From the IMG/VR virus record IMGVR_UViG_3300045988_187372: 64,000 bases of DNA; one strand, 5' to 3'. The notes below the pieces were generated by a model, which was given only the letters and a program-made list of their open reading frames with translations, did no database searches and was not told the DNA's origin. Both the position numbers and the translations under genes were made by a program. The stretch is from a virus. How positions within the stretch are numbered: position 1 is the stretch's first letter; each line of letters starts with the position of its first letter. Positions 15,511 through 60,593 of the stretch are shown here, one piece after another.

Positions 15511-15570
15511 ATGAACTACTCACAACCGACATTAGTCGGATGGAGTTTTCTTGCAATTCTTCGATAATAT
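15511..15570. repeat. 60-nt conserved structured repeat, copy 1
   Basis: ATGAACTACTCACAACCGACATTAGTCGGATGGAGTTTTCTTGCAATTCTTCGATAATAT. Confidence 0.7.
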
Positions 15571-15598
15571 TTAAAGTTTTCATGAAATCCCTTTCTTT

Positions 15599-16057
15599 TT
15601 ACAATGTACTTTTTATAACTTTAACAGGTTCTAATCTGCCATTTATAAATGAAGCCGTTCCTAATGTTTTGTCAGTATTTTCAGAAGATTCAAAGAAATC
15701 ATTTGCCATATCCTCATTTGAAAAATATGAATATTCTCCTGAATTGTCTCCACTATCTGACTCATATCCTATCCATACATAATATAATGAAAAGCTTTCA
15801 AGGCTATCACTGTCTTCAGGGATTTCTCCATCCCAATCATCATTTTCTTTTATATCTTCTTCTAATTCATATTTAAACTCGCTCATCATATTAGGATCGT
15901 CTAAATATACACATTTATGGTAATTATCAACTGCAATTGCGCATTTCTGTCCTAATGGATGCAATAAATAATTCTTAGGCACTTCCAATAATGCTTTTAT
16001 CATATCATTTACTGTTTCTAAGTTGTTTTCCTTAATTTCAAATGCGTTAGTTTTCAT
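15599..16057 (-). CDS. acidic hypothetical protein
   Basis: 152-aa ORF; promoter motif 16093-16106; terminator 16113-16135. Confidence 0.5.
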   Translation of the reverse strand: MKTNAFEIKENNLETVNDMIKALLEVPKNYLLHPLGQKCAIAVDNYHKCVYLDDPNMMSEFKYELEEDIKENDDWDGEIPEDSDSLESFSLYYVWIGYESDSGDNSGEYSYFSNEDMANDFFESSENTDKTLGTASFINGRLEPVKVIKSTL

Positions 16058-16092
16058 AATTTTATTCTCCTTTTTAAATTTTATAATAATAC

Positions 16093-16106
16093 AATGACAG
16101 AAAAAT
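16093..16106 (-). promoter_or_regulatory. conserved promoter motif
   Basis: CAATGACAGAAAAA upstream of 15599..16057. Confidence 0.55.
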
Positions 16107-16112
16107 AAAAAA

Positions 16113-16135
16113 ACTGGCTACTAATAGTAACCAGT
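16113..16135 (-). terminator. intrinsic terminator
   Basis: ACTGGTTACTATTAGTAGCCAGT + TTTTTTT, immediately followed by promoter motif. Confidence 0.65.
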
Positions 16136-16141
16136 TTAATT

Positions 16142-17131
16142 TTATAACTTTACAATTTTCTCATTGATTTTCATTCTAAATGTATTGATTTTGTCTATAT
16201 CTGGCTCATCTGGCAATACAGAGTTTTTACATGCATTTTCAAACTTATTCTTGTATTCATCTACTATTTCAAAAAACTGTTTATTAGGGATTCCATTTTC
16301 ATCAAGATATACACCATTTCTAATATCCATCAACAAATCATGTTCTTTAATTCTTTTCGTTTGAATTTTCCCTTCAGAAACTAAATCAATTCCCATCATA
16401 TACAATCTAAGTAAATGCATACTATGTTTTGCTATTTTACCATGATTTAATGCATGTTCATTCCTTTTACTTGTTTTCCGGTAATCTCTTAAAGTGTTAT
16501 TAAATTCTGAAAGCATTCCTAACAAATCTTCCATTGAACACTGTGTTGCAATAATATTACATTTGATTTTGCCATCAAACAAATAAAAAGACACATTATT
16601 TTCATCTAAATTGTACTTATCATTCATTTTCTTGGACATATTATTAAGCACTCCAGAAATGTGTCTATTTAATTCTTCCTCAGTTAAAGCAGCGTTGGTC
16701 TTCTGCTGCATACGGTATAACTGTTGTAATGCATATTCACTAAATGTATTAATACATCTATTCGATAAAAAAATATCTTTATTTTTTAATAAAAGCTCCC
16801 CAATTTCATTTTTATAAATATAATCATCTGTATCTAATCCTAAAAGTTCAATAGTGTTTGGATTGCATTTTGTTAATAAATCAATAATTTTGTCAAAACT
16901 ATAAATAGTTGTATCTGTATTAACATCTACAAAATTTTCAAAATCATTACCTAACAAGATATCTTCTTTTCTTCTAACAGCAACTCCTCTTATATCAATA
17001 TCGCTTTCTGGAAGATTTGTCCCATATGCTCTGCTACCACCTAATCCAAGTATACAAATATTCTTATCTAAATTTTGATTTTCCTTTAAAAATGAATACT
17101 CAGGCATATTTAATATATTTTTATTTATCAT
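16142..17131 (-). CDS. Pol-beta superfamily nucleotidyltransferase
   Basis: GLGGSRAYGTNLPESDIDIRGV = GS-x(9-13)-DxD minimal NTase signature; repeat element copy 2 in 5'UTR. Confidence 0.6.
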   Translation of the reverse strand: MINKNILNMPEYSFLKENQNLDKNICILGLGGSRAYGTNLPESDIDIRGVAVRRKEDILLGNDFENFVDVNTDTTIYSFDKIIDLLTKCNPNTIELLGLDTDDYIYKNEIGELLLKNKDIFLSNRCINTFSEYALQQLYRMQQKTNAALTEEELNRHISGVLNNMSKKMNDKYNLDENNVSFYLFDGKIKCNIIATQCSMEDLLGMLSEFNNTLRDYRKTSKRNEHALNHGKIAKHSMHLLRLYMMGIDLVSEGKIQTKRIKEHDLLMDIRNGVYLDENGIPNKQFFEIVDEYKNKFENACKNSVLPDEPDIDKINTFRMKINEKIVKL

Positions 17132-17154
17132 ATTCTCTTTCCTATCCTTGTAAT

Positions 17155-17213
17155 TGAACTACTCGCAACCGGCTATTGTCGGTTGGAGTTTTCTTGCTTA
17201 ATTGCGATAATAT
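17155..17213. repeat. 60-nt conserved structured repeat, copy 2
   Basis: TTGAACTACTCGCAACCGGCTATTGTCGGTTGGAGTTTTCTTGCTTAATTGCGATAATAT. Confidence 0.7.
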
Positions 17214-17220
17214 CATTCTT

Positions 17221-17853
17221 TTATTTTCTAACAATAGCAGAAAAATCTACTGACTGTAAAATCTTAATGATATCTTCTACTTCAGGACTTCTCCATGCAG
17301 TCATAGCATAGGTATGAGCGTACTCATCATAATGATAATGATTTGCTTTTAGGTGTTCAGCGGCTGCCTTTTCTGTTAAAAACATTGTGTTTTCATAAAT
17401 TTTATCTCTATATGCATAACAGGTGAAAGTATATCTGCCATAATTATGCTCATTCAACCAAGTCTTTAAATCATCAAGATCAGTTAAGTATTCCTCATAA
17501 TCATTATCTTCTTTTGATGTGATATAATATCCATCATATTCTTTTGAAATAACCCAAGAGTCACCGTTTTCTTCAAATTCCTTATTAAAAAATACAATTG
17601 CATCATCAATATTATCAGCAACTTCTTCTACAGCTTCATTATCGATTAGTGTTACACCGTCTTCATATCCTTCTGGAACAATACACTTTTCTTTTCCCAT
17701 AATAACCCAAAATCGAGGATCAGCTTGTCCTACATGGTCCTGTGTATTTAATTCATGCTGCAAATCAGACAAAAATTTGATTTCTTTATCTGTAATTTTA
17801 TGTTTCTCTACTGTGTCTGGATGGTATTGTAAATGTTCATAAAATATTGCCAT
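17221..17853 (-). CDS. acidic hypothetical protein
   Basis: 210-aa ORF. Confidence 0.55.
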   Translation of the reverse strand: MAIFYEHLQYHPDTVEKHKITDKEIKFLSDLQHELNTQDHVGQADPRFWVIMGKEKCIVPEGYEDGVTLIDNEAVEEVADNIDDAIVFFNKEFEENGDSWVISKEYDGYYITSKEDNDYEEYLTDLDDLKTWLNEHNYGRYTFTCYAYRDKIYENTMFLTEKAAAEHLKANHYHYDEYAHTYAMTAWRSPEVEDIIKILQSVDFSAIVRK

Positions 17854-17880
17854 ATTTTTCTCCTTAAACTTTATTTATTT

Positions 17881-18117
17881 TTATTCAGTATAGTATTGGA
17901 ATGCACAATCATACATTTGTTTCCCAGTTATCTGATCTGTGAATATAGGACAATGCCAATCCTTATCAAATCCTGTTTCCTTACACCATTCATTAATAAC
18001 TCTAGTAGTAATTGGTGTGACAAACACATATAAATCTGATTCATGGTGAAAGATATCTTTTTCAGAATATCCAGCCTCAATAAGCCGTTGCATAAGAGTT
18101 TTATTATTTTTCTCCAT
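17881..18117 (-). CDS. hypothetical protein
   Basis: 78-aa ORF; promoter motif 18155-18169. Confidence 0.5.
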   Translation of the reverse strand: MEKNNKTLMQRLIEAGYSEKDIFHHESDLYVFVTPITTRVINEWCKETGFDKDWHCPIFTDQITGKQMYDCAFQYYTE

Positions 18118-18154
18118 AATATTGTTCTCCTTTATTTATTATAATTTAAAAGAA

Positions 18155-18169
18155 ATATGACAGAAAAAA
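18155..18169 (-). promoter_or_regulatory. conserved promoter motif
   Basis: AATATGACAGAAAAA upstream of 17881..18117. Confidence 0.6.
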
Positions 18170-18221
18170 CGCACATCATAATGACATGCGTTTTAATACA
18201 AAATATTCAATTAACTATTCA

Positions 18222-20771
18222 CTATGAACATAACTTCTTAAGGTTATTCCTCATACCGGCTGACTCAAACTGGAAAACATTCTTAGTTCTTCCTTTTGCA
18301 TATACTTCTTTGTATACCTTATCAGCTTTAGGACCCTCTAATGGAATATTCATTACATCAATTACTTCTCCTGTATCTCTCTGAATCATTCTGAGTGTGT
18401 CGGTAATAATTGTAAGAGTTTTTAATCCAAGAAAATCCATTTTTAATAATCCATTAGCTTCGCACTGAATCATATCCATTTCTGTAGTTTTAATTCCCTT
18501 TTTTCCATCTCTAATAGGAATATAATCAGTAACATCATTACTATCATAAATAATAACACCTGCGGCATGTTGTCCGTATGTCGTAAGCATACCTTCACAA
18601 TGAGCTGCAATATTAAGAATAGAAATAGCATCTGGATTACTATTATATTCATCCTTTAAGAAATCTAACAAAGAAATGCTGTCCTGAATATTAATGCCTA
18701 ATTCATCAACCTTATTAGTATCTTTCATGCCAACAATATCTTCAAAATTAGTTGCTTTAGCAGGCACTTTCTTACGAATCTGATCTCCTAAAGATAAGAA
18801 TTTCTTTTCATCATCATAAGCTTTCTTTCCATAATATCTTGCAGCATCTCTGATAGCACCTTTAGCCTGCTGTCTTGATTCTGTAATAATTCCAACAACA
18901 GCTTCACTACCATATTTAGCTCTTACATACTCAATTGTCTTTTCTCTTACTCCAAGAGCAAGATCACTATCGATATCAGGCATACTTACTCTTTCTGGAT
19001 TTAAGAATCGTTCAAAAATCAGATTATACTTAAATGGATCAATTCCGGTAATACCAAGTAAATATGTAACCAATGAACCGGCACCTGAACCTCTTCCAAT
19101 GCCTATTCCAATTCCGGTATTATAATTGTGAGCCTTAACATACTCTTTTGCACCTTCAATTGTTAAAGGTACTTCTGATAGTTTATCCATAGGTACTAAT
19201 CCACAAATTCTTCCATATTCCAGGAAGTCCTTTACAATTAAATGATAATCGGCAAAGCCCATCTGAATGATAATATTAAGTTCGTATTCCATTCGTTTCT
19301 GATGTTCTTCATCCCATCCTTTTCCGTTAGGATATCTCCAATTAATTCCCTTAATTGCTTCAGATCTTAATAATTCGTTTGAGTCCTTGTTCTTATCAAA
19401 TACTGGATAATGATTAGATTTTTCTGGAATATAAGCACATCTTTTTCCAATTACATTTAAGTTATTGAGTGCTTCTGCAACCTGATCATCTGTTAATATA
19501 GCTGATAAGGCCTGAGCAAGTTCGTAAGGTGTTTTTACATATAACTCTTTATCTGATTCCGACTCACTTATCTTAATAAATCTTAAAAATTTAGCTACAT
19601 TACGCATATCAATACTTCTATCAGAATTATCTGCCATATGTGCATCATTAGCAGCAACTAATGGGATATTATGCTTCCTTGCTAACTGAGCTAACACAGG
19701 ATATGTTCTGCTTTCCATTTCAAGCCCATGATTCTGAACTTCAATGTAATAATTACCTGCTCCAAAAATTTCCTGATAAAAAAGCATTGTCTTTTCTGCT
19801 TCAGACATTAATTCTATTGGGCTTTTCTTTAATGATTCATAATGCTGTATCTTATTTTCATGATTAATATATTCCTCTACTTTAAGACTTATATCCTTTA
19901 ACTCGGCTTTCTTAGCATTAACTAATTTTCTGACATTAGGAATTTTATCTTTAGCTTCCAGAATTTTATTATTTATCTCCTCATATTCGTTAATCAGTTT
20001 AATAAGCTCTGGATCATCATCATTTAAACACTTTCTTGCATCTCTTAATTTTCTTGAAATCTGTGTTCTTTCTGATTTAAGTTCCTTGGAATCACGAATA
20101 TTAATCAATTCATCTAAATCTGCCGATACCCTTTCAAATTCATCTTTAGCTGAAAGATATTCTTTATCATCAGGACTTATACAATCACGTATAACTAGCT
20201 CGTCTTTTTCAGTAGTATGCTGCTGTGCTTTTCTTTCTCTGTTAATCATTTTATCCAAAACATCATCTGATAATAATTGCAGAGCTGGTGCACCCGAAAC
20301 GCAAGCTGAAGTTGCTATTATATCACCGTTAAAGTTATATTTCTTTAAATCTGATATTGTAATAACAGGCTTTCCCATTCTTTTTTCAGAAGCCTTAGAA
20401 TTTAACTTATCAATAATATGCTTGCCTCTTTCTGAAGTGGCTAACATAATAATATGGCCAATCTGTTCATTTATCTTAAATGGTGGCACTTCAATATAAG
20501 CCTCTACGCCATAAATGATATTAAATGGATGTTCCTCAGTACTTATTTTCTTAGCGTAATCAATACATGTTTGCATTGCTGAAAATGATGCATGGTCCGT
20601 AACAGCAAATTTAGTATATCCTGCATTAAATGCAGCATCTAAATAACTTTTAGGTTCATCTACGGCATCAAACAAAGAGCCTCCTGGATGGTTATGTTCA
20701 CACACTGTAACTCCTGATTCAATAACCTTTTTTGTTAATTCTCCAATTTTTACATGTTCAAACATTGACAT
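18222..20771 (-). CDS. dnaE: DNA polymerase III alpha subunit, N-terminal fragment (PHP + palm)
   Basis: AVTDHASFSAMQ (PHP), YIEVQNHGLEME...PLVAANDAHM, PDIDSDLAL, KMDFLGLKTLTII, ends QFESAGMRNNLKKLCS* exactly where the C-fragment gene resumes; promoter 20805-20820. Confidence 0.9.
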   Translation of the reverse strand: MSMFEHVKIGELTKKVIESGVTVCEHNHPGGSLFDAVDEPKSYLDAAFNAGYTKFAVTDHASFSAMQTCIDYAKKISTEEHPFNIIYGVEAYIEVPPFKINEQIGHIIMLATSERGKHIIDKLNSKASEKRMGKPVITISDLKKYNFNGDIIATSACVSGAPALQLLSDDVLDKMINRERKAQQHTTEKDELVIRDCISPDDKEYLSAKDEFERVSADLDELINIRDSKELKSERTQISRKLRDARKCLNDDDPELIKLINEYEEINNKILEAKDKIPNVRKLVNAKKAELKDISLKVEEYINHENKIQHYESLKKSPIELMSEAEKTMLFYQEIFGAGNYYIEVQNHGLEMESRTYPVLAQLARKHNIPLVAANDAHMADNSDRSIDMRNVAKFLRFIKISESESDKELYVKTPYELAQALSAILTDDQVAEALNNLNVIGKRCAYIPEKSNHYPVFDKNKDSNELLRSEAIKGINWRYPNGKGWDEEHQKRMEYELNIIIQMGFADYHLIVKDFLEYGRICGLVPMDKLSEVPLTIEGAKEYVKAHNYNTGIGIGIGRGSGAGSLVTYLLGITGIDPFKYNLIFERFLNPERVSMPDIDSDLALGVREKTIEYVRAKYGSEAVVGIITESRQQAKGAIRDAARYYGKKAYDDEKKFLSLGDQIRKKVPAKATNFEDIVGMKDTNKVDELGINIQDSISLLDFLKDEYNSNPDAISILNIAAHCEGMLTTYGQHAAGVIIYDSNDVTDYIPIRDGKKGIKTTEMDMIQCEANGLLKMDFLGLKTLTIITDTLRMIQRDTGEVIDVMNIPLEGPKADKVYKEVYAKGRTKNVFQFESAGMRNNLKKLCS

Positions 20772-20804
20772 TAAATTTCCTCCTTTATAAATTTTATAAT
20801 TAAT

Positions 20805-20882: not shown

Positions 20883-22034
20883 TTATTCTACCTTAACAAC
20901 GTCTCCTCTATCTGATGTTTCAGTAATAACAATATACTTGATTTCCATATTGTCGTTTGCAAGAGCAATTCTTGTTACATTATCTTCCTTACTTGTATCG
21001 ACAATCCAATCATATCCTTCAACTGCAGACATTATCTTTGAATCAGTAATGATTTTATCAACATACTCTCCAATCATAATTCTGTCTTCAAGTCTGATAA
21101 AATCAGCACTATTCCAACCAATTGAAACAGATTTAATATGTGAAGGGATATTAATACTATTGAGCCTCATTAATGTACCACCATTAAGAGCAATCATTTC
21201 TGCTTTAATATGATCCATTTCGATTAATTCCTTAGTATTAGTAATTGTATCTAAATGATAATCACAATTATTGCATTCATCATAATCTCCACAATCATTT
21301 TCGCAGTCATAACCACAATCACAATCAGGATTATAATAATTATTATCACATACCTGCTCTGTATATTCAATGACCCATGTAGGTACATTCATTGAATTTC
21401 TTACAGTAATGACATTATTGATTGGTGCGTCAAGCATTAAATAACTTGAAATATAATTCTTTGCACCATCATAAACGATAATTTCAGCATTATCAAAATA
21501 TTCAGCGAAAATATCTTTTCCATTAAAATCCTTCTTTGTTTCAAAGTGTGTATAGGAAGTCTTTAGTATCACATATTTGTCACATACACCTATAACTTCC
21601 GGCATTGGAATTGAAACTGGAATAAGTTTCTTAAACTTATCCTCATCCGGCTTATAAGCAAATAAATCAATATAATTATCATGTTCTGTTGTGTTTTCTC
21701 TAGGTAATACAGATAATAAAAGCTTACCTGGAACAGATGTAACGATACTCTTAATTACCAGTGAACCCTGCTGTGTAGCAGCAACACCATCCTTAAGTAA
21801 AATTCCGTCTTCTACTGAATATCCATCTGGAATATCTGGAATATTAGGATTGCTGATAAGTCTAAAAGCAATTGCGTTAGATGATGATATCATAACAGAT
21901 ATATCCTCGTTTACTTCACCATTTTCTAAAAGACAAGCCGTTCCTACGCCATCGGTAACAGATGTAATTAAATACTGTCTGTTGTCAACCTTGTTTAATA
22001 CTGTTACATTTTCTAAAATTTTGTTTTCTCTCAT
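20883..22034 (-). CDS. paralog family protein with Cys/Asp-rich insertion
   Basis: N- and C-terminal thirds similar to 22167..23216 product; unique CDNNYYNPDCDCGYDCENDCGDYDECNNCDYH segment. Confidence 0.6.
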   Translation of the reverse strand: MRENKILENVTVLNKVDNRQYLITSVTDGVGTACLLENGEVNEDISVMISSSNAIAFRLISNPNIPDIPDGYSVEDGILLKDGVAATQQGSLVIKSIVTSVPGKLLLSVLPRENTTEHDNYIDLFAYKPDEDKFKKLIPVSIPMPEVIGVCDKYVILKTSYTHFETKKDFNGKDIFAEYFDNAEIIVYDGAKNYISSYLMLDAPINNVITVRNSMNVPTWVIEYTEQVCDNNYYNPDCDCGYDCENDCGDYDECNNCDYHLDTITNTKELIEMDHIKAEMIALNGGTLMRLNSINIPSHIKSVSIGWNSADFIRLEDRIMIGEYVDKIITDSKIMSAVEGYDWIVDTSKEDNVTRIALANDNMEIKYIVITETSDRGDVVKVE

Positions 22035-22166: not shown

Positions 22167-23216
22167 TTACTCTATGGTTATAATGTCTCCTCTATCTCTT
22201 GTTTCAGAAATAACAAGAGTCTTTATCTCCATAGTATTTGTATTAGCAAGAGAAATTCTTGTAACATGATCCTTAGATGTAATATCCACAATTACATTAT
22301 AACCTGCAAGCTCAGCAACTATCTTATCTGGGATCTTATATGTGATATCATTAATATACCACTTGCCTGAAGAAGCTTTAATCAGGCTTGCATTATATCC
22401 CTTTGAAATTGATTCTGGAACACTGTCAATTGCTGTTGTCTTATAAAGACTTAATGAATGACCTTCAGAAGCAACAAATCTTAATGTAATATAATCATCT
22501 TCCTTGATAACTCCGTCAGAATCGACTACTGTATCTGCTTCAATTGCGAAAATTGTTTCATTAGGTGCCTTAACAGAATCTACAGCCTTAATTGGCTCCG
22601 CAAAAGAAACATGATCAACAACTGCATCAGACATTACATCATATAACATGATTGCTGCAGCATCAAAGATATTATCTGTTTCAATAGTTCCATCTTCAAG
22701 CTTCTTATCCTTAGTATAAGTTCTTGAATATGTCATATATAACTGCATCTTATTCTCAGAAGAAGCAATGATTGTAACTTCTGGAATAGATCTTCTGATA
22801 AGCTTATTAAACTTATCTGACTCAACTGTATATGACATAATATCGAAATAACCTTCTCTTGGCTCTCTTGGTTCAACAGATAAAATAAGCCTTCCTGCAA
22901 CACCTGCAATAATACTATTAATTACTAGTGAACCCTGTTCTGTAGCAGGGACTCCATCCTTAAGCAAAATTCCGTTTTCTACAGTATATCCAGTTGGAAC
23001 ATCTGGAATATTAGGATCATCAATCAGCTTGTAAGCTATTGCATTATTAGCTGTAATTACTGCAGTAACCGAATCATCAAGTGAACCATCCTCTTTGATT
23101 AACTTGGCTGTTCCTTTAATGGAATCACCTGAACCATCAACATTAATTATCTGGTAATTCTTACGGTCTACCTTGTTTAATACTGTTACATTAGTCTTAA
23201 TCTTGTTTATTCTCAT
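22167..23216 (-). CDS. paralog family protein
   Basis: MRINKIKTNVTVLNKVD... / ...EIKTLVISETRDRGDIITIE conserved with upstream paralog. Confidence 0.6.
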   Translation of the reverse strand: MRINKIKTNVTVLNKVDRKNYQIINVDGSGDSIKGTAKLIKEDGSLDDSVTAVITANNAIAYKLIDDPNIPDVPTGYTVENGILLKDGVPATEQGSLVINSIIAGVAGRLILSVEPREPREGYFDIMSYTVESDKFNKLIRRSIPEVTIIASSENKMQLYMTYSRTYTKDKKLEDGTIETDNIFDAAAIMLYDVMSDAVVDHVSFAEPIKAVDSVKAPNETIFAIEADTVVDSDGVIKEDDYITLRFVASEGHSLSLYKTTAIDSVPESISKGYNASLIKASSGKWYINDITYKIPDKIVAELAGYNVIVDITSKDHVTRISLANTNTMEIKTLVISETRDRGDIITIE

Positions 23217-24757: not shown

Positions 24758-25321
24758 TCAAAAATATTTCGAATAAAATAAATCAACCTGATGATACAAA
24801 TATTGCAAATCCTTATCGTTAGATATTAAGAAATTATAATCTTTTGATTTTTTGTATTCATCAAATTCCTCTCTTTCACTCTCTAAGCGTATTCGCAAAG
24901 TATCAGGATTATCTCCTCTTAGAAGCCCTCTTTTAATTATTTTATTTTCAGCCAAATCAACATATACACAAATCAAATTAAACAAATTATACTTATTATG
25001 CTCTTTTAACCATTTAACGCCATCGGGGTTTATAATGTATACGCATATATTTGAAGGTAAAGCTTCTAATGCAGCACAATATTCTATTCCAGTTTTATTA
25101 TTTTTTGTATAAGCTATAATTGTTTTTTCTTTTAAAACATTGCTCATTTCTTCCTTTGAAATAAATACATGTTCCACACCATTTGTTTCATATTCTCTTT
25201 TGGGCCTTGTTGTCATTGAAACAACTGAAGGAATTCCATACTTTTCATTTAATACCTTTGCGACTGTATCTTTGCCACTTGATGTTTTCCCTATAACTGC
25301 AATTATTGTCTTTTTATCCAT
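24758..25321 (-). CDS. guanylate kinase-like nucleotide kinase
   Basis: P-loop IAVIGKTSSGKDT and TTRPKREYETNGVEHVFIS (TTRxxRxxExxGxxYxFxS). Confidence 0.7.
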   Translation of the reverse strand: MDKKTIIAVIGKTSSGKDTVAKVLNEKYGIPSVVSMTTRPKREYETNGVEHVFISKEEMSNVLKEKTIIAYTKNNKTGIEYCAALEALPSNICVYIINPDGVKWLKEHNKYNLFNLICVYVDLAENKIIKRGLLRGDNPDTLRIRLESEREEFDEYKKSKDYNFLISNDKDLQYLYHQVDLFYSKYF

Positions 25322-25347
25322 ATTGAAATTCTCCTAATAATTAATAA

Positions 25348-25497
25348 CTAATGCCATAAGCAATTATATAATTCATCAATGCGGTTCTGGCATCTGTCAG
25401 CTTCTAATTCATTACCGGATTCCGAATACTGGTCCCTTTTAATTTCCCAATTTTGAATTTCTTTTTTTATTCTTGTATATTTACCATTTTCTTTCAT
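25348..25497 (-). CDS. small protein (49 aa, not in ORF track)
   Basis: MKENGKYTRIKKEIQNWEIKRDQYSESGNELEADRCQNRIDELYNCLWH; strong RBS AAAAGGAG; promoter motif 25531-25547. Confidence 0.45.
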   Translation of the reverse strand: MKENGKYTRIKKEIQNWEIKRDQYSESGNELEADRCQNRIDELYNCLWH

Positions 25498-31202: not shown

Positions 31203-32777
31203 TTACTTAGTAGAATTCTTTTCTGACTTAGACACTTTTTCAGGAACATTCTTTACAGTTACCTTAATCTCCGGATCAGCATCTTCTGGAATGCCTGTAA
31301 AGTTCACATTCTTTGTTGTCTTGGCATCATATGTATTAGCCTTCATTACTTCTGTAAGATCAAAACCGGTTGTTTCCTTAACAGATTCAATTGTCTTTGC
31401 AAGTACTGATGGTACATTACTGCTAAATGAACCTACTCCGGTTTCTCCATTACCACTATCAATAATTGTTACCTTATCAATAGCTTCTAATGGCTTTGCA
31501 ATAGCTCCTGCCATCTCAGGAAGTACCTTGATAATCATTTCAGTCATGGCAGCCTTACCATACTTAGCCATTGCATCTGCTTTCTTCTCCATAGCTTCAG
31601 CTTCAGCTAATCCCCTTGCCTTAATACTTTCAGCATCAGCAACACCTTTTGCCTTAATACTCTCTGCTTCTGCAAAGCCCTGTGCCTTAACTGCTTCAGC
31701 TTCCTGTTCCTTAGCAAATCTGTCTGCTTCTGCCTGTGATTTCTTAGCTTCAGCCTGCTTCTGAATTTCAAACTGCTTTGCTTCTGCTTCCTTCTGTCTC
31801 TGATAAAGTTCTGCATCTGCCTTCTGCTGTGCTGCATACTTTTCAGCTTCAGCCTGCTTACGGATATCAGCATCAAGTGTCTTTTCCTTAACAGTGATTT
31901 CCTTTTCTCTTAATTCAATTTCCTTTTCCTGCTTTGCAATATTAGCATTGGCAGTTGTAATTTCAATTGTCTTTCTCTGTTCCTGCTGCTGGATTTCATA
32001 TGCCGCATCAGCTTCAGCCTTCTTGACATCTGCTGCTCTCTTTAATTCCTGCTTCTTAATCTCAAGTTCATTATTTCTTTCTGCAATAGCTGTCTCAGCT
32101 TCAATTCTTGCATCATTAGCCTGCTTTTCAGCATTAGCCTTTGCAACTGCAATATCTCTTTCTGATTCTGCTCTTGATATCTGTGCTGACTTACTGATAC
32201 TTACAACCCTGTCAATACCAAGGTTTTCAATAACATTACCTTCATCAGTAACATTCTGAACATTAAAGCTTACAATTTCAAGACCCATTCTTTCCATATC
32301 AGGAGCAGCATTCTCCTGTACCTTTTCAGCAAATAACTTTCTGTCCTGTACAATATCCTCAAGCTTCATCTGTCCTATAATTTCACGGACATTACCTTCA
32401 AGTACATCTACAACTGATTCTCTGATATAATCTGAATTTTTATTAAGGAAGTTACTTGCCGCTTTCCCAAGCATTTCAGGTGATGAACCAATCTTAATCT
32501 TTACAGCAGAATCAATATTAACATTGATATACTCATTTGTTGGTACTGATTCCTTTGTCTTGACATCAACAGAAATCATCTTTAAATCAAGTTTATCAAC
32601 TCTCTGTAAAAATGGTATCTTAAGTGATGACCTTCCAATTACATACTTAGGTGTCTTTCTAAGTCCTGATACAATAAGTGCCTTGTCTGTCGGAGCCTTA
32701 ATATAACTTGCAAATAATAATGCAATTAATACTACAACCACCGCTACTACAATTCCAATCGTTACTTCAATTCCCAT
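31203..32777 (-). CDS. flotillin / SPFH (band-7) domain protein
   Basis: N-terminal TM helix, SPFH core (KALIVSGLRK...ISVDVKTKE...), long Ala/Glu/Lys-rich coiled coil. Confidence 0.8.
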   Translation of the reverse strand: MGIEVTIGIVVAVVVVLIALLFASYIKAPTDKALIVSGLRKTPKYVIGRSSLKIPFLQRVDKLDLKMISVDVKTKESVPTNEYINVNIDSAVKIKIGSSPEMLGKAASNFLNKNSDYIRESVVDVLEGNVREIIGQMKLEDIVQDRKLFAEKVQENAAPDMERMGLEIVSFNVQNVTDEGNVIENLGIDRVVSISKSAQISRAESERDIAVAKANAEKQANDARIEAETAIAERNNELEIKKQELKRAADVKKAEADAAYEIQQQEQRKTIEITTANANIAKQEKEIELREKEITVKEKTLDADIRKQAEAEKYAAQQKADAELYQRQKEAEAKQFEIQKQAEAKKSQAEADRFAKEQEAEAVKAQGFAEAESIKAKGVADAESIKARGLAEAEAMEKKADAMAKYGKAAMTEMIIKVLPEMAGAIAKPLEAIDKVTIIDSGNGETGVGSFSSNVPSVLAKTIESVKETTGFDLTEVMKANTYDAKTTKNVNFTGIPEDADPEIKVTVKNVPEKVSKSEKNSTK

Positions 32778-32811
32778 AAATTTTATTCCTTTCTTTTAGT
32801 AAAAATAAGCA

Positions 32812-32871
32812 TGAACTACTCACAATCTACATTAATCAGGTGGAGCTTTCTTGCTTGATTGCGATAAACGT
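32812..32871. repeat. 60-nt conserved structured repeat, copy 3 (degenerate stem)
   Basis: ATGAACTACTCACAATCTACATTAATCAGGTGGAGCTTTCTTGCTTGATTGCGATAAACG in flotillin 5'UTR. Confidence 0.65.
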
Positions 32872-32905: not shown

Positions 32906-32920
32906 AATATGACAGATATT
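32906..32920 (-). promoter_or_regulatory. conserved promoter motif
   Basis: AATATGACAGATATT; transcript passes through repeat copy 3 before flotillin start. Confidence 0.55.
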
Positions 32921-34823: not shown

Positions 34824-34999
34824 TATAACAAAAGCAGGAGATGCTTGCTTATCTCCTGCTAAAATATTAATTTCTAAATTGTTTTATAAACTATTCACAA
34901 CCGATTATTGTCGGATGAAGTTTTCTTGCTATTCTTCGATAATATAGAAATATAATTGATTTTTCCTTTTTAATTGGATATTTTATATATGACAAAAAA
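34824..34999 (-). ncRNA. candidate small RNA unit: promoter - repeat copy 4 - terminator, no ORF
   Basis: promoter motif 34985-34999, terminator hairpin AGCAGGAGATGCTTGCTTATCTCCTGCT + T-run 34824-34851 on minus strand. Confidence 0.35.
34888..34946. repeat. 60-nt conserved structured repeat, copy 4
   Basis: AACTATTCACAACCGATTATTGTCGGATGAAGTTTTCTTGCTATTCTTCGATAATAT; flanked by promoter motif (34985-34999) and terminator (34824-34851). Confidence 0.65.
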
Positions 35000-35001: not shown

Positions 35002-35436
35002 TCATTTAATCAAAATTCTAATCAAATTAGAATCTGCATCTGCTACAAAGTTTTCTATTAAAACTATTTTTATAATGTTGCTTTTGTTATCCACGAATGT
35101 ATATGTTAATACTGGATTTTCTAATACCGACTTATCTAAATCATAATATTTAATTAGTAAATTTCTTAACTTATCATAAATCATTATGAATTTATCTTTG
35201 TAATCATTTTGAACGATATGAACCTTCTTATCTTTAGCGTTAAATTTTATTCTGTCTTCCGAAATTGTAAATGCAGAAATTCCATTGTATATATTAAAAT
35301 TATAACTAAAAATATATTCATAATTAATTTCTGAAATGAAATTATTGATTATCTGGTTTAATTCATATCTAATTTTTTGTCTTGACACTTGTTTTTGTTT
35401 TGTTTTTCTCATAATTTTAAGCATAAAGTCCTCCAT
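35002..35436 (-). CDS. hypothetical protein
   Basis: 144-aa ORF; promoter 35461-35476. Confidence 0.5.
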   Translation of the reverse strand: MEDFMLKIMRKTKQKQVSRQKIRYELNQIINNFISEINYEYIFSYNFNIYNGISAFTISEDRIKFNAKDKKVHIVQNDYKDKFIMIYDKLRNLLIKYYDLDKSVLENPVLTYTFVDNKSNIIKIVLIENFVADADSNLIRILIK

Positions 35437-44882: not shown

Positions 44883-46808
44883 TTAGTAATTATACGAAAA
44901 TGACATATGATTATTTAAATGTTTTAAATATGGGGTAAGATATACTTTACGTTCATGATATATTTCTGGGACACATAAGTACATTTGTTTTTTTGCTCTT
45001 GTAATAGCAACATAGAATACTCTTAGATTTTCCTGTCTTTCTTCTTCAGCCATGCTCATAGCATTAAATCCTGGGTAAACTCCTGTAACACAATCAAGTA
45101 CAAATACATATTCCCATTCCAAACCTTTTGCTGAATGTACTGTTGAAATAACCAAGCCCTCTTCTTCATCTTTGTTATCCATCCCTAAAGTTAAATTATC
45201 AAGAAAAGCGTTTAAAGATTTGTGATTATTAAACACTGTACATAATTCATACAACTGTTTTAAAATATTTTTATCATCATCTAATTTATCCTGTTCATTT
45301 ATTTTTTGCTCTTCATTTAATTTAGCATTTTCCAATAATTCTTTTCTTTGTTCAATATAATATTCATTTATTTTTAGCACAAGATCAGGGATACTTAACT
45401 GGTTCCTATAATACTTGATTCTAAAATTCAAAATTGTATTATGCAATTTTTCCATGTCTTGATGAAATTTTTTTGTTGGATATTCATGCAGCAAGAAATC
45501 TTTTTCTGTTACATGTTCTACAATATTCCTTGCATATGTATCACCAATTCCATATATTAATTGCAATATTCTAAACCACGCTAATGTGTCAATTGGATTA
45601 GCAATAACTCTTAAATAGGCTAAGATATCCTGGACAGCTTCTCTTTCAAAAAATTTAGGGCCGCCAACTTTTTTGTATGGAATATTATTATTCATTAACA
45701 ATGTTTCCAATATAGCTGAATCTCTGGAATACTTCTCTAGCACTGCTATATCCTTATATGGGACATTTTTATTATGCAGCTTAATTATTCTATTTAAAAT
45801 GCAGGTTGCCTCTTCTGCCTGATTTTGAAGACTTATGACTTCAGGCATAGTTCCTTGTTTATTATTACTTGTCATATTCTTAGGATATCCAAAATTAGCA
45901 TACCGGTTCATAACTGAATTTGCTAAATTAAGTATTTCTGTAGTGGAACGATAATTCTTTTCAAGTTTTATTACTTTGCAATTTTTATGCTTTTTAGGGA
46001 AATTAATAAAGTTAGACACATTGCTTCCTCTGAAAGCATAGATGCTTTGATAATCATCTCCTACAACTGCTAGATTCTCATATTTCTGAGCCATTTTAAA
46101 TATAATTCTTTCCTGCAGATTATTGGTATCTTGATACTCATCTACCATAATGTATTTATAACTGCTTGAAATTTGATTTCTGACAGCTTTATTATCTAAT
46201 AATTCGTTAAAGTATATTAACAAATCATCATAATCTACCAGATTATTTTCCTTTTTATAATTTTTGTATTTTTCAAACAGCTCAGTATATATATATGATA
46301 AAAATGCCAAGTTACTATCTTTAAGCCCAATAACTGTTTCTAATGGTAAATCTTGATTAATTGACATGCTAAATATTTTGGCGATTTCAGATACAGAGAA
46401 GCCGCTTTTTATTTTATATTTTTCTGGATTTTCAGCTATAAGAAGTTTAATTGTATTTACAACATCGCTCTCAGAAAGTATAGTAAAGTTTTTTCTTAGA
46501 CCAACTAAAACTCCATATATCCTTAACATTTTGGCACAAAAAGAATGATATGTACATGCAGTAATTTTATTGCATCTTTCATCTAATATTTGTGCAGCTC
46601 TTTCACTCATTTCATTAGCTGCCTTATTAGTGAATGTTAAAAGCAGAATACTCTGAGGTGGAATTCCATTTTCTATCATATATGCAACTCTATGTATTAA
46701 TGTTGCTGTTTTGCCTGTACCTGCTCCTGCAATAATAAGTAATGGCCCATCAATTGTTGTAGCAGCTTCATATTGCTGCTCATTTAAAACAGCTTTATAA
46801 TCAATCAT
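44883..46808 (-). CDS. UvrD/Rep-like SF1 DNA helicase
   Basis: IIAGAGTGKTATL Walker A, MVDEYQDTN motif II, YRST, VHSAKGLEWEYVFV motif VI region. Confidence 0.85.
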   Translation of the reverse strand: MIDYKAVLNEQQYEAATTIDGPLLIIAGAGTGKTATLIHRVAYMIENGIPPQSILLLTFTNKAANEMSERAAQILDERCNKITACTYHSFCAKMLRIYGVLVGLRKNFTILSESDVVNTIKLLIAENPEKYKIKSGFSVSEIAKIFSMSINQDLPLETVIGLKDSNLAFLSYIYTELFEKYKNYKKENNLVDYDDLLIYFNELLDNKAVRNQISSSYKYIMVDEYQDTNNLQERIIFKMAQKYENLAVVGDDYQSIYAFRGSNVSNFINFPKKHKNCKVIKLEKNYRSTTEILNLANSVMNRYANFGYPKNMTSNNKQGTMPEVISLQNQAEEATCILNRIIKLHNKNVPYKDIAVLEKYSRDSAILETLLMNNNIPYKKVGGPKFFEREAVQDILAYLRVIANPIDTLAWFRILQLIYGIGDTYARNIVEHVTEKDFLLHEYPTKKFHQDMEKLHNTILNFRIKYYRNQLSIPDLVLKINEYYIEQRKELLENAKLNEEQKINEQDKLDDDKNILKQLYELCTVFNNHKSLNAFLDNLTLGMDNKDEEEGLVISTVHSAKGLEWEYVFVLDCVTGVYPGFNAMSMAEEERQENLRVFYVAITRAKKQMYLCVPEIYHERKVYLTPYLKHLNNHMSFSYNY

Positions 46809-46840: not shown

Positions 46841-46899
46841 ATGAACTACTCACAACCGACTATTGTCAGATGGAGTTTTCTTACTATTTTTCAATAAAA
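46841..46899. repeat. 60-nt conserved structured repeat, copy 5
   Basis: ATGAACTACTCACAACCGACTATTGTCAGATGGAGTTTTCTTACTATTTTTCAATAAAAA in helicase 5'UTR. Confidence 0.7.
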
Positions 46900-46910: not shown

Positions 46911-46926
46911 AAAATATGACAGATTT
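46911..46926 (-). promoter_or_regulatory. conserved promoter motif
   Basis: AAATATGACAGATTTA; transcript passes through repeat copy 5 before UvrD-like helicase. Confidence 0.55.
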
Positions 46927-50784: not shown

Positions 50785-50796
50785 AAAATTACCTCC

Positions 50797-55313: not shown

Positions 55314-55344
55314 AATTATTCTCCTTTATATTTATTTACACAAT

Positions 55345-55360
55345 AAATATGACAGAGAAT
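55345..55360 (-). promoter_or_regulatory. conserved promoter motif
   Basis: AAATATGACAGAGAAT upstream of PBP gene. Confidence 0.6.
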
Positions 55361-55368
55361 AACAAAAA

Positions 55369-55391
55369 GCTCCCACCATTAAGGTGAGAGC
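55369..55391 (-). terminator. intrinsic terminator
   Basis: GCTCTCACCTTAATGGTGGGAGC + TTTTTGTT. Confidence 0.6.
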
Positions 55392-55577
55392 TATAATCAA
55401 AGTTGCTAGTAGAATTGTAAAATTCTATTAAAGTGTATTTTACGACAAAATTACCGGCTTTAACAAAAGTGCTAGTCTTTGAGGAGGCATATATGTATGC
55501 CTAATATGTACCGACAATATTTTATCACATTGTAAATTATAATACAATATTGATTTAATCATTATATGACAGATTTT
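55385..55577 (-). ncRNA. candidate small RNA unit between two promoter motifs
   Basis: promoter motif 55563-55577, hairpin AGGCATATATGTATGCCT, terminator 55369-55391, then second promoter 55345-55360 for PBP gene; only a 16-codon ORF without RBS. Confidence 0.35.
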
Positions 55578-55590
55578 TGATTGCAAATTT

Positions 55591-56724: not shown

Positions 56725-56865
56725 AATAATATTTATTAATCACTGAATCCCTTATCTGAAGATAAGGGAAGAAGCAATTCTCCTTTCTGCCATATTGCAT
56801 CTTTTTGTTTCTAATATATGAGCATTTTACAAAGTTATTATCATTTTTTTTAATTAAATCTAACA

Positions 56866-58080: not shown

Positions 58081-58116
58081 AGGTCCTCCTTATAGTCAAA
58101 AAAAGTTATATTAATA

Positions 58117-58133
58117 TATATATGACAGATAAT
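58117..58133 (-). promoter_or_regulatory. conserved promoter motif
   Basis: TATATATGACAGATAAT upstream of HD-GYP gene; no motif between HD-GYP and GGDEF genes (operon). Confidence 0.6.
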
Positions 58134-58141
58134 ATTAAAAA

Positions 58142-58252
58142 AAGAGTTCAACGTGACTAAGTAAGATCATGCTTACCGTTACCGCTGAACCCTTTTTATA
58201 AAAATATAATTAGCTCCTTTATTTTTAGCTAATAATAATATGACAGAATTAA
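58142..58252 (-). ncRNA. candidate small RNA unit: promoter - ~50-nt imperfect hairpin - T-run
   Basis: promoter motif 58236-58252; long hairpin 58142-58193 (AGAGTTCAACG...CGCTGAACCCT with inner GTAAG/CTTAC) flanked by A-run and T-run; next promoter 58117-58133 drives HD-GYP gene. Confidence 0.35.
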
Positions 58253-58261
58253 AATAAATAA

Positions 58262-58288
58262 AGCGTAGAATAATTAATTCTACGCTTT
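58262..58288 (-). terminator. intrinsic terminator
   Basis: AAAGCGTAGAATTAATTATTCTACGCTTT + ATTTATTTT after small gene/PARP operon. Confidence 0.55.
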
Positions 58289-58297
58289 ACACAATCA

Positions 58298-58441
58298 TTA
58301 TTTATTAATTTTTTTCTGATGTAAATTATTTATAAAAGTGATTGCCTCAGGAGGCAATGGAGAAAATCTATATACTTTTTTCATTTCTTCTTCGCAGCAT
58401 ATACCTGCTCTTTTTAATTCATATATATTTTTCTTTTTCAT
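58298..58441 (-). CDS. small protein (47 aa, not in ORF track)
   Basis: MKKKNIYELKRAGICCEEEMKKVYRFSPLPPEAITFINNLHQKKINK; strong RBS AAGGAGG; terminator 58262-58288. Confidence 0.4.
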   Translation of the reverse strand: MKKKNIYELKRAGICCEEEMKKVYRFSPLPPEAITFINNLHQKKINK

Positions 58442-58453
58442 AAAATTTCCTCC

Positions 58454-59740
58454 TTACTGAGCTGCTGTAAATTCAACAAAATATTCTATAGTACTTTGCT
58501 GATCCTGATATACAATAATTTCATCATTACATAAACTATGGCCCGCATGAGCAAAAGTACAATGAGCGCCAGGACATCTCTGTTGTAAAACATTATAAGT
58601 TAAATCACTTTCAGCAGATGTTACATCATATGTTTTACCAGTAGCCACTTTGAAAATGCCTAAATATCCAATTGCTTCACTACCATGAGTCCAATAAGAA
58701 CCGGAGCTTGAAGTATATCCCATCGATTTTTTTGCCTTATTAGCAAAATATGTACCTAATCCAAACATCTTTCCATTAGTTACAACTCCAACTGGATTTA
58801 TTGTTAAACCATTAGTTATAATGGACCAGAAGTTTTCTGATCTTGAACCATGAAATAAATGAGATATTCCATTATTTTCATCACTTAAATTTTCTTTAGC
58901 ACAATATTCATTGAAAGCCTTTTCGGTCTTTTTATTAATGATTCTCCAAGCATTTTTATATTGCTTTGCATTTTCTCCCATAAGCTTCTTGATTTTAGTC
59001 TCTTCTTCGTCAGATACAGGTCTCCATTCAAGTCCATAGGCCTGAAGAACTGTTGGCATAGTGTCATATTTAGCTAAATTACTATTAGATCTTACCTGAG
59101 AATACACAATATCAAACAGTTCCTGCTCTTTGTCAATGATATCAACAAATTCAATCTTTCTTTTAGCCAAATGTTTAGATAAATTATCCATTCTTCTAGG
59201 AATTGCAGCATATAATACTTTTAATTTATTATTAAACTCTGCAATTGACATAGAATCATGGTTCTTAGCTAATTCAATCAAAATCGAATTACCATATTCA
59301 AGCATCTCATCTGAAATATCTTCAACTGAAGTTGAATAATTATCTGAAATAACCTTATTAGCGTATGAAAGCAGTTTTGTTATAATAGAATCAACAGAGA
59401 AAATTCCAGTCTGTGCATATGTACCGCCATTAAAACTTAAACCTTTTTTTGTAATCTTTTTTTTCTCCATTTTTTGAGTCTTTGTAAGCAACCAACCTCT
59501 ATTTACCTTAGACAAATAAAAAGAATCCCAATTAGTCATAGGAAGTGAATATGTCCTTGGCCTGTTCCTTCCTATCCTGATTCCAATTCTACCTTCAGTA
59601 ACATCAAAAACATTCTTATTATTGGCATTAACCTGCATAATAATCTGTTGATTATTACCTTTACCTGTAGCTGTTTCTGCAACATAATTAAGTTCCAAAT
59701 ATTCATGATTTGGTATTGTATTTATATCTGCCTGTTTCAT
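58454..59740 (-). CDS. PARP-like ADP-ribosyltransferase (WGR-like N-term + catalytic domain)
   Basis: LFHGSRSENFWSIITNGL...GKMFGLGTYFA...NDEIIVY parallels PARP1 LLWHGSRTTNFAGILSQGL...GYMFGKGIYFA...YNEYIVY (H-Y-E triad present). Confidence 0.8.
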   Translation of the reverse strand: MKQADINTIPNHEYLELNYVAETATGKGNNQQIIMQVNANNKNVFDVTEGRIGIRIGRNRPRTYSLPMTNWDSFYLSKVNRGWLLTKTQKMEKKKITKKGLSFNGGTYAQTGIFSVDSIITKLLSYANKVISDNYSTSVEDISDEMLEYGNSILIELAKNHDSMSIAEFNNKLKVLYAAIPRRMDNLSKHLAKRKIEFVDIIDKEQELFDIVYSQVRSNSNLAKYDTMPTVLQAYGLEWRPVSDEEETKIKKLMGENAKQYKNAWRIINKKTEKAFNEYCAKENLSDENNGISHLFHGSRSENFWSIITNGLTINPVGVVTNGKMFGLGTYFANKAKKSMGYTSSSGSYWTHGSEAIGYLGIFKVATGKTYDVTSAESDLTYNVLQQRCPGAHCTFAHAGHSLCNDEIIVYQDQQSTIEYFVEFTAAQ

Positions 59741-59756
59741 AAATCCTCCTTATATA

Positions 59757-59957
59757 TTACGCAATTTTATCTTTAAATTTTTCGAAAGCTTCTTTTGTAA
59801 ATTGTGTATACATCCCAGAATCATTTCTTACTGATACGAAATCGCCAAATGCTATACATTCATATGTATGCCCTTTTGTCCAGCATCCATAGAATGATTC
59901 ATTAGTATCAGATAAAGTTTTATTTGCCTGCACATTAAAAACAATATGTTCTATCAT
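59757..59957 (-). CDS. hypothetical protein
   Basis: 66-aa ORF first in operon with PARP; promoter variant ATATGTCAGAAAAAT 59993-60009. Confidence 0.45.
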   Translation of the reverse strand: MIEHIVFNVQANKTLSDTNESFYGCWTKGHTYECIAFGDFVSVRNDSGMYTQFTKEAFEKFKDKIA

Positions 59958-60083
59958 TTTGAATACGCCTCCTTTAATTAATTGATGTAATATATATGTC
60001 AGAAAAATAAAATTGGATATAAATTTGTAAATTCATTTTATATATAGTATATTATTAAATATTGTAAAATTAAGGAGAGTAAA

Positions 60084-60482
60084 ATGAATATGAACAAACT
60101 TAATATTTTTTCAATTGAATTTGGAAATGGAAAAATGTTTTTTGTTGGAAAGAATGAGTCTATCAAATATATAAAAAATCATTTTAATTGGAAAGATACT
60201 CATAACGATGTGGTTAATATAAATGTAATGACCGATTTAGCAATAAAAAACAATGTATTTGTTAATATAATGCCTAATAATATTAAGGATAAATTATATG
60301 CAAAATTATTTATTATTTCTAAACTAAAGAAACATAAATTATGGATGTCTTTTGATCAATATTTAGCTGTTATGTGTTTTACGGAAAACGGTAAAAAAGA
60401 AATAAAAATGTTATTGAATATGTCTGATGATGACATAGATTTAATCTGTAAAAATTCAGAATGGAATAAAATTTTAAAATAA
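60084..60482 (+). CDS. hypothetical protein
   Basis: 132 aa; RBS TTAAGGAGAGTAAAATG; bidirectional terminator 60487-60530. Confidence 0.55.
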   Translation: MNMNKLNIFSIEFGNGKMFFVGKNESIKYIKNHFNWKDTHNDVVNINVMTDLAIKNNVFVNIMPNNIKDKLYAKLFIISKLKKHKLWMSFDQYLAVMCFTENGKKEIKMLLNMSDDDIDLICKNSEWNKILK

Positions 60483-60486
60483 ATAA

Positions 60487-60530
60487 AAAGACTTAGTATG
60501 ATACATATTATAAACATACTAAGTCTTTTT
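60487..60530. terminator. bidirectional intrinsic terminator
   Basis: AAAAAGACTTAGTATG...CATACTAAGTCTTTTT between convergent genes 60084..60482(+) and 60594..61310(-). Confidence 0.6.
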
Positions 60531-60534
60531 CTAT

Positions 60535-60593
60535 CTGAACTACTCACAACCAACTATTGTTGGATGGAGTTTTTTGCTTAATTGCGATAATTA
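60535..60593. repeat. 60-nt conserved structured repeat, copy 6
   Basis: CTGAACTACTCACAACCAACTATTGTTGGATGGAGTTTTTTGCTTAATTGCGATAAT; CCAAC/GTTGG compensatory stem. Confidence 0.7.

Follow-up and report, generated by a model that had tools for sequence, protein, structure and literature searches.

A six-member repeat family in the window

We analyzed a 64,000-nt stretch of the IMG/VR record IMGVR_UViG_3300045988_187372 (hereafter, the window) and focused on a short hairpin-forming repeat that occurs six times between or ahead of its genes. Most genes of the window are encoded on the minus strand, and the repeat is therefore read on that strand. A repeat search of the window yielded a single six-member family, starting at plus-strand coordinates 15507, 17150, 32807, 34882, 46837 and 60531. 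Its core 20-mer had four matches at ≤3 mismatches in the window, compared with none in 100 shuffles. A hidden Markov model (HMM) built from the six copies added no further member: with the filters off and a threshold of E ≤ 50, it recovered the same six in the window, and the next matches (E > 0.2) corresponded to the palindrome read on the opposite strand. All copies (c1 to c6) lie on the minus strand, that is, in gene sense, are 52-53 nt long and have TTAT directly on their 5' side. The minus-strand consensus is TTAT/CG(A/C)A..(A/T)AGCAAGAAAA-CTCCATCCGAC-NNNN-GTCGGTTGTGAG-TAGTTCAT/, in which slashes, here and below, mark boundaries. The positions, parts and neighbours of the copies are listed in Table 1.

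Table 1. Copies of the repeat, the parts of copy c1 and an empty target site in the window
Feature	Coordinates	Strand	5' TTAT	Description and context
c1	15511-15563	-	15564-15567	53 nt; intergenic within operon
c1, left-end leader	15563-15546	-		18 nt, CGAAGAATTGCAAGAAAA
c1, hairpin	15545-15519	-		CTCCATCCGAC-TAAT-GTCGGTTGTGAG
c1, right-end tail	15518-15511	-		TAGTTCAT
c2	17154-17206	-	17207-17210	53 nt; degenerate tail TAGTTCAA; between the stop of ORF 17221-17853 and the ribosome-binding site of the RlaP-type nucleotidyltransferase gene 16142-17131
c3	32811-32863	-	32864-32867	53 nt; between a TCTGTCATAT motif (32907-32916) and the flotillin-like (Band_7/Flot) gene 31203-32777
c4	34886-34938	-	34939-34942	53 nt; 3' of ORF 35002-35436 and of a TTTGTCATAT motif (34987-34996); 5' of a terminator-like hairpin (34860-34833)
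c5	46841-46893	-	46894-46897	53 nt; first dinucleotide CG mutated to TG; between a TCTGTCATAT motif (46914-46923) and the UvrD-like helicase gene 44883-46808
c6	60535-60586	-	60587-60590	52 nt, one leader A missing; stem double change CCAAC/GTTGG; between the stop of ORF 60594-61310 and a terminator-like hairpin
Empty target site	25336-25348	-		upstream of the guanylate-kinase gene 24758-25321; window reads GGCATTAGTTAT-TAATTAT-TAGGAG

A first-pass annotation made from the window alone had described these copies as a structured repeat, and much of that description was borne out. The number of copies was confirmed by both searches, with precise limits 0-2 nt from the starts it gave, and the stem variants that it quoted (CCGGC/GTCGG, CCGAT/GTCGG and CCAAC/GTTGG) were all present. 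The contexts also agreed: copies near the flotillin, UvrD-like helicase and nucleotidyltransferase genes, in an operon spacer, at a 3' end and in a promoter-repeat-terminator unit. Copy c2 indeed lacks a promoter motif of its own, as do c1 and c6. The inner stem of c3 is decayed, with two broken pairs (CTGAT/GTAGA); the orthologue of this copy in locus L002 is intact. We also share the earlier view that a nucleic-acid site is likelier than a peptide. The loop varies in length between 3 and 4 nt, and this variation breaks every reading frame.

A peptide reading was rejected on further grounds: most copies contain stops in all three sense frames, and in L133 and L141 a loop of only 3 nt changes the frame. 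Open reading frames (ORFs) that begin at an internal GTG ('VSSS...') or that run into the repeat were regarded as by-products. Stop-codon recoding was considered, as TAG or TGA within the repeat sometimes interrupts longer frames, and was dropped; the genes of the window are long under the standard code.

The repeat matches the two ends of an IS200/IS605-type element

A full-length relative of the repeat was found in the bacterial contigs L164, L166 and L167, which carry an 83%-identical TnpB. In these three contigs the left end (LE) of the insertion sequence (IS) reads TTAT/CGTAACTTAGCAAGAAAACTCCATCCGAC-AACT-GTCGGTTGTGAG/ATGAATTGCAC.... The interior holds a decayed tnpA on the opposite strand (Pfam Y1_Tnp, E = 2e-7) followed by tnpB (OrfB_IS605 and Cas12f1-like_TNB domains), and the right end (RE) reads ...CATAGAAACTCCATCCGAC-GTTA-GTCGGTTGCGAG-TAGTTCAT/. 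Both ends carry a near-identical imperfect hairpin of 27 nt. In our alignment of the copies with these ends (A3), every copy in the window is LE-like as far as the hairpin and RE-like after it; each is thus composed of the LE leader (CG..AGCAAGAAAA), the hairpin and the RE tail TAGTTCAT. Consistently, blastn matched c1, c2, c4, c5 and c6 to IS positions 8-60 (LE, 83-86% identity) and 1829-1871 (RE, 82.5-89%), and matched the decayed c3 to the LE only (75.5%). The IS interior was absent from the window by blastn.

These results indicate that the repeat is very probably a gene-less miniature derivative of an IS200/IS605-type (TnpA/TnpB) insertion sequence, a family that encodes the Y1 'HUH' transposase TnpA and the RNA-guided nuclease TnpB. 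Because the copies consist of the LE leader, the shared end hairpin and the RE tail, the hairpin would be the structure that the transposase recognizes in single-stranded DNA (ssDNA). The 53-nt form would then be what remains once everything between the LE and RE hairpins has been lost.

Further loci place the same RE behind tnpB genes. In L019, the 3' ~42 nt of the repeat begin 50 nt downstream of a TnpB-type stop codon. The TnpB fragment in this locus has 756 homologues annotated as IS200/IS605 TnpB, with 60% identity in Butyrivibrio, and these homologues carry the Pfam OrfB_IS605 and Cas12f1-like TNB domains. Two relatives of the replicon, L169 and L041, also contain IS200/IS605 material. 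In L169, the same RE follows a 5'-truncated tnpB (2960-3907) beside an NAD-dependent DNA ligase gene, and the G+C content is low (29%), as in the type of replicon to which the window belongs. A second TnpB, 39% identical and belonging to a second subfamily, is encoded in L041 (minus strand, 7267-8517; 416 aa) and is apparently intact; its region ends on the same plan, with a hairpin and then GAGTAGTTCA. Downstream of this TnpB, L041 reads ...CTCTGAC-TTCTATAA-GTCGGAG-TAGTTCAC.

Among viral contigs, a scan with the TnpB fragment found no relatives, and the repeat itself was found in only two IMG/VR contigs. It was also observed in two Lachnospiraceae metagenome-assembled genomes (40-42% G+C) in unrelated chromosomal contexts: in one, it lies in the thiD-thiC spacer behind a thiamine pyrophosphate (TPP) riboswitch, and in the other, it follows the terminator of a PBP1A gene, between convergent genes.

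Target site and polymorphic insertions

We sampled further copies with a metagenome scan, whose pattern left the inner stem and the loop free, followed by an HMM search of the fetched loci. This yielded 87 instances, representing 51 distinct sequences in 32 groups with distinct flanks. TTAT precedes 47 of 50 distinct copies. Insertion just 3' of a fixed tetranucleotide, without duplication of the target, is the rule in the IS200/IS605 family, the tetranucleotide being TTAC in IS608 (PMC5027513). The TTAT found here would accordingly represent the family-typical target, which is also the transposon-adjacent motif (TAM) of TnpB, and the terminal ...TCAT/ would represent the right-end cleavage motif.

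The clearest pair of filled and empty alleles is provided by an internally deleted copy of 237 nt in L085, in which the LE and RE enclose only a small part of the interior followed by the final ~160 nt of tnpB. L019 reads GAGTATTAT/AACCG and L085 reads GAGTATTAT/[CG...TTCAT]/AACCG; the 237-nt insertion thus lies exactly 3' of TTAT and produced no target duplication. A 2.4-kb insert present at the L085 site in L124 and L024 was considered as a possible full-length IS, and proved to be an unrelated two-gene cassette.

Two sites of the 53-nt form were also polymorphic among near-identical genomes. The c1 site is empty in L014 and L054. Conversely, the site upstream of the guanylate-kinase gene, which is empty in the window, is filled in L155, L157, L003, L006, L072 and L074, which read GGCATTAGTTAT-[53-nt element]-TAGGAG. 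At both sites, TTAT stays on the left in filled and empty alleles. Two larger rearrangements were found next to copies of the element: a 164-nt segment directly after c1, which runs from TCAT/ to TTAT/, is missing in L063, and L041 contains an element, a ~300-nt cassette and another element where L017 contains a single element between the same outer flanks.

Orientation of the copies

The copies are co-oriented with transcription. Around the sites, long ORFs on the same strand amounted to 131.7 kb, compared with 19 kb on the opposite strand. At 31 of 32 site groups, and along the whole window, the G-rich strand was also the top strand of the element, a skew that is confounded with gene direction. 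The active strand of IS200/IS605 elements prefers the lagging-strand template for both excision and insertion (PMC5027513). If the G-rich strand corresponds to the leading-strand sequence, then the active strand of the present element would lie on the lagging-strand template. The uniform orientation could thus be explained by insertion into that template, and we infer that the copies arrived by TnpA-mediated single-strand 'peel-and-paste' transposition.

No excess of base-pair conservation in the hairpin

The first-pass annotation had taken the compensatory or wobble-compatible stem changes as evidence for selection on RNA structure. We compared the pairing of the 14-pair hairpin in 50 aligned distinct sequences with that in shuffles, a comparison whose power for covariation is limited by the low variation among the copies. 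Paired cells accounted for 93.7% of the total, compared with 93.5% in the shuffles (153 of 500 shuffles reached the observed value), and the covariation score was 0.092, compared with 0.088 (84 of 500), so that no covariation above background was found. Three double changes were observed against 1.5 expected. One-sided changes left 32 G.U pairs on the transcribed strand and 30 A.C mismatches, which are G.U pairs on the other strand. Within groups of orthologous sites, the divergence of the element (3.4%) equalled that of the 150 nt on either side (3.5% and 4.5%).

The hairpin folds equally well as DNA on either strand. As ssDNA, the single hairpin gave -8.3 to -8.9 kcal/mol (z = -3.5 to -4.7). 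As RNA, four of the six copies in the window folded better than shuffles (z = -2.3 to -3.2), and c3 and c4 folded no better (z = -0.3 and -0.2). Rfam 15 gave no match in the window at the gathering score, only sub-threshold, chance-level matches around c4 and none at the IS right ends; a tRNA/tmRNA scan gave none. The best of the sub-threshold matches, to the rteR sRNA at 34830-34909 on the minus strand, scored 26.5 bits (E = 0.029), compared with a gathering score of 72. This match covers the 3' part of c4 and the following terminator hairpin, and we regard it as due to chance.

The hairpin is therefore real, but nothing shows selection for RNA pairing. Since there is neither covariation nor an asymmetry between G.U and A.C changes, the apparently compensatory changes are not evidence of RNA structure, and in c3 the pairs are broken. 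Of the earlier interpretation, a real repeat with a hairpin, co-oriented with genes and located in untranslated or intergenic stretches, stands, and selection on RNA structure is not supported. That annotation had itself named the lack of covariation in a larger alignment, combined with an origin as an insertion-sequence remnant, as the outcome that would overturn its interpretation; both were found.

Alternative explanations for the repeat

The copies might nevertheless be cis-acting structured RNAs maintained by selection on their structure, such as RNase III-type sites of the kind known from T7 and SP82, nut/put-like antiterminators or stabilizers. In that case, a factor from the host or from the element would bind or cut the hairpin in 5' untranslated regions, operon spacers and 3' ends. 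This explanation is consistent with the co-orientation of all copies with transcription, with their positions after promoter motifs, before ribosome-binding sites or before terminators, with the folding of four copies and with the finding of c3 and c5 in every relative inspected. Variation is also greatest in the loop, and conservation in the stems reaches 86-98%, values that have to be read with the scan pattern in mind: it fixed the 9 and 12 bases that flank the inner stem, which inflates conservation there and biases the sample toward well-preserved copies. We nevertheless consider a structured RNA improbable. In addition to the absence of covariation, the equal G.U and A.C counts, the two copies that fold no better than shuffles, the broken pairs of c3, a divergence equal to that of the flanks and the lack of an Rfam match, copies are gained or lost between near-identical genomes, and the distance from promoter motif to element varies from 2 to ~45 nt. 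Moreover, the IS ends account for the whole sequence, and strand-specific transposition explains the orientation equally well.

A second explanation, which we consider very improbable, is that the repeats act as recombination modules similar to the promoter early stem-loop (PeSL) cassettes of T4-type phages, with homologous exchange of small gene cassettes between them and an incidental IS origin. The element-cassette-element arrangement of L041 and the loss in L063 of the 164 nt that follow c1 in the window would fit such exchange, and the replicon encodes RecA, RecJ and UvrD-type proteins. However, only two such events were seen, both of which also fit TnpA-type cutting at T(C/T)AT, and the TTAT rule, the one-strand orientation and the copies in bacterial chromosomes are left unexplained. 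Recombination would in any case be a consequence of the repeats rather than their origin. Like the T7 and SP82 RNase III hairpins and the T4 PeSLs, the present repeats are conserved intergenic hairpins of a large mobile replicon and can mark cassette boundaries. In PeSLs, an early promoter lies inside the repeat; here, the TCTGTCATAT motif is found 2-45 nt away from the repeat or, at c1, c2 and c6, not at all.

An element of the repetitive extragenic palindromic (REP) type, served by a domesticated REP-associated tyrosine transposase (RAYT) rather than by an IS-borne TnpA, would match the single imperfect palindrome, the REP-like size, the intergenic and 3' positions and the presence of a GTAG tetranucleotide (GAGTAGTTC), but is extremely improbable: GTAG lies 3' of the hairpin and not at its 5' head, the copies are few (6 in 64 kb and ~8 in the fetched loci of a 322-kb contig), inverted REP doublets (REPINs) were not seen and all copies in the window share one orientation, no RAYT was seen and the window contains no Y1 gene, and both leader and tail can be aligned with those of a bona fide tnpA/tnpB IS. 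Several other systems (lambda nut and HK022 put sites, T7 and SP82 RNase III sites, mycobacteriophage stoperators, integron attC sites and plasmid ssDNA promoters) were set aside on the IS homology alone.

Observations that weigh against the transposon origin

Some observations do weigh against the derivation from an IS200/IS605-type element, or against the ability of the 53-nt form to move. Both tnpA and tnpB are absent from the window, as is any similarity to Y1 transposases, and no intact tnpA was found, the only one seen being a 73-aa remnant in a bacterial contig. A dimer of TnpA normally uses two hairpins, which would argue against mobility of a form that has only one. As noted above, the orientation of the copies is confounded with GC skew and gene direction, and the scan pattern biases the sample. 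The copies c3 and c5 are present in all ~10 relatives inspected, and their retention for a host function is possible. Furthermore, the empty alleles of the two polymorphic 53-nt sites are not simple: they contain extra bases, consisting of A and T only and ending in TTAT where the element ends in TCAT, namely the 12 nt AAATAATTTTAT at the c1 site (L014 and L054) and the 7 nt TAATTAT at the guanylate-kinase site (window).

These fillers resemble the element tail GAGTAGTTCAT with G/C changed to A/T. Possible causes include aberrant TnpA cutting at a neighbouring TTAT, old haplotypes and chance in AT-rich DNA. A T(C/T)AT motif occurs at the boundaries of three indels (roughly p ~ 0.01), which is only suggestive, given that the last two bases are common to both alleles and that the DNA is 72% A+T.

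How the 53-nt form may have spread

Given an IS origin, we lean toward the view that the 53-nt form was moved in trans by a TnpA encoded elsewhere. Identical copies occur at different sites (for example, in L055 and L035), and the same minimal form is present at ~28 sites, at which no full-length counterpart was seen. In IS608, cleavage takes place 19 nt before the LE hairpin and 10 nt after the RE hairpin; the corresponding distances in the repeat, given by its 18-nt leader and 8-nt tail, are close to these values. Alternatively, and again given an IS origin, each copy could be the scar of a formerly full-length element whose LE and RE hairpins recombined, a route that we regard as a serious possibility but not as the expected one. 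Such a scar would resemble a solo long terminal repeat (LTR), the single hybrid product that recombination between two near-identical terminal repeats leaves at a site. Solo LTRs derive from another class of element, and the repeats here are hairpin segments of 27-38 nt, so that the comparison is an analogy only.

More speculatively, the 53-nt LE/RE fusion may itself be an active Y1 substrate in trans, with cutting at T(C/T)AT driving segment replacement and the gain and loss of cassettes in this giant gut element; we consider this rather unlikely. Candidate traces of such cutting are the 7- and 12-nt fillers, the 164-nt deletion from TCAT/ to TTAT/ and the element-cassette-element arrangement of L041.

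Comparison with known miniature elements and REPs

Gene-less minimal relatives of IS200/IS605 elements, including the palindrome-associated transposable elements (PATEs), are already known, from Haloquadratum (PMC3119063) and Geobacillus stearothermophilus (Meers et al., PMC10055086). The repeat resembles PATEs in that it is non-coding, is homologous at its two ends to the LE and RE of a TnpA/TnpB IS, contains a hairpin, follows a fixed tetranucleotide (here TTAT) without target duplication and is presumed to be mobilized in trans. It differs in that PATEs keep separate LE and RE hairpins and often the whole omega-RNA, whereas the repeat is 53 nt long and has one fused hairpin, common to its LE part and its RE part. 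Only the last ~42 nt of the RE region, which correspond to the end of the omega-RNA region, are present, and the 3' end of tnpB is missing from the window. A conventional PATE is represented by the 237-nt copy in L085, and the copies in the window are further reduced. Within this known kind of element, the repeat thus has an unusually reduced, single-hairpin architecture.

The repeat shares with IS608 and ISDra2 (PMC5027513, PMC3597680) a subterminal imperfect hairpin on the active strand and an LE that abuts a 4-nt target (TTAC in IS608, TTAT in the repeat). The active strand of IS608 and ISDra2 lies on the lagging-strand template, and that of the repeat may do so too. Just 5' of the hairpin foot, IS608 has the tetranucleotide AAAG and the repeat has AAAA, which by analogy would fit the published guide/target pairing. 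Unlike IS608 and ISDra2, the repeat has no genes and a single hairpin. REPs (PMC3333891, PMC3116915) are likewise short single imperfect palindromes at intergenic positions and 3' ends. They resemble the end hairpins of IS200/IS605 elements (PMC3333891), to which they are tied evolutionarily, and are capable of incidental effects on mRNA. For the present repeat, too, a secondary, REP-like stabilizing effect on host mRNAs is possible.

Host replicon and other features of the window

The replicon that carries the window looks like a giant conjugative-type extrachromosomal element of 340-590 kb rather than a plain phage. The ORF at 62740-63945 (plus strand) encodes a Mob_Pre relaxase (Pfam, E = 4e-30), and a 982-aa TraG/VirD4-type coupling protein and a NERD protein are encoded just past the end of the window (L162/L163, 2024-4972). 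Human-gut contigs of 340-586 kb with ~28% G+C encode the same proteins, the exact UvrD-like protein is indexed in 748 blocks of the metagenome collection, and IMG/VR lists 95-103 kb pieces of this replicon as viral. Searches of PLSDB plasmids (with a 58-nt repeat consensus and the window end) and of a phage collection (with window 44.0-51.9 kb) gave no useful match. A relation to the 'Inocle'-type elements (PMC12340149) is possible.

The decamer TCTGTCATAT (≤1 mismatch) occurs 61 times in the window, compared with 9.8 expected, mostly on the minus strand and tens of nucleotides before a ribosome-binding site; it is also found on the plus strand at 62695-62704, just before the plus-strand relaxase gene. 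It is probably a promoter element of the replicon's own sigma factor. By synteny with L161, a Sigma70_r2/r4 gene is located at ~8.35-9.38 kb (minus strand).

Two genes separated by several others, at ~11.8-13.5 kb and 18222-20771 (by synteny with L161), appear to encode DNA polymerase III alpha: one product contains PHP and DNA_pol3_alpha domains (849 aa), and a separate 561-aa protein contains finger, HHH_6 and OB domains. Relative to the ORF at 18222-20771, some relatives (L160, 7723-8147; L063) carry a 425-nt insertion at window position 18977/18978 that splits the gene at ...SMP/DIDSD...; the upstream exon ends in T and the insert in G. This insertion is likely a group I intron (Rfam Intron_gpI, E = 8.8e-4, below the gathering score), and the window is intron-less. 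Finally, a direct repeat of 183 nt (78% identity; 21697-21879 and 22864-23046) lies in adjacent ORFs of 383 and 349 aa, neither of which matched Pfam; it presumably arose by tandem duplication of a gene.

Implications

The repeat is selfish-DNA debris and not demonstrably a regulatory RNA. In annotations, c1 to c6 are best entered as IS200/IS605-derived miniature elements whose target or TAM is TTAT, rather than as a new riboregulator, and the 'compensatory' stem changes should not serve as evidence of RNA structure. The strand-specific orientation of the copies offers a handle on the direction of replication of the replicon. If the 53-nt form is mobile, it would be among the smallest transposable units, a REP-like element caught in the act of arising from IS200/IS605, and it would define the minimal substrate for single-strand transposition. 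The decay series from the full IS through the 237-nt PATE to the 53-nt hairpin illustrates how REP-like repeats can originate. The finding as a whole documents the traffic of TnpA/TnpB-type transposons between Lachnospiraceae-like chromosomes and a very widespread, uncultivated gut replicon of 340-590 kb.

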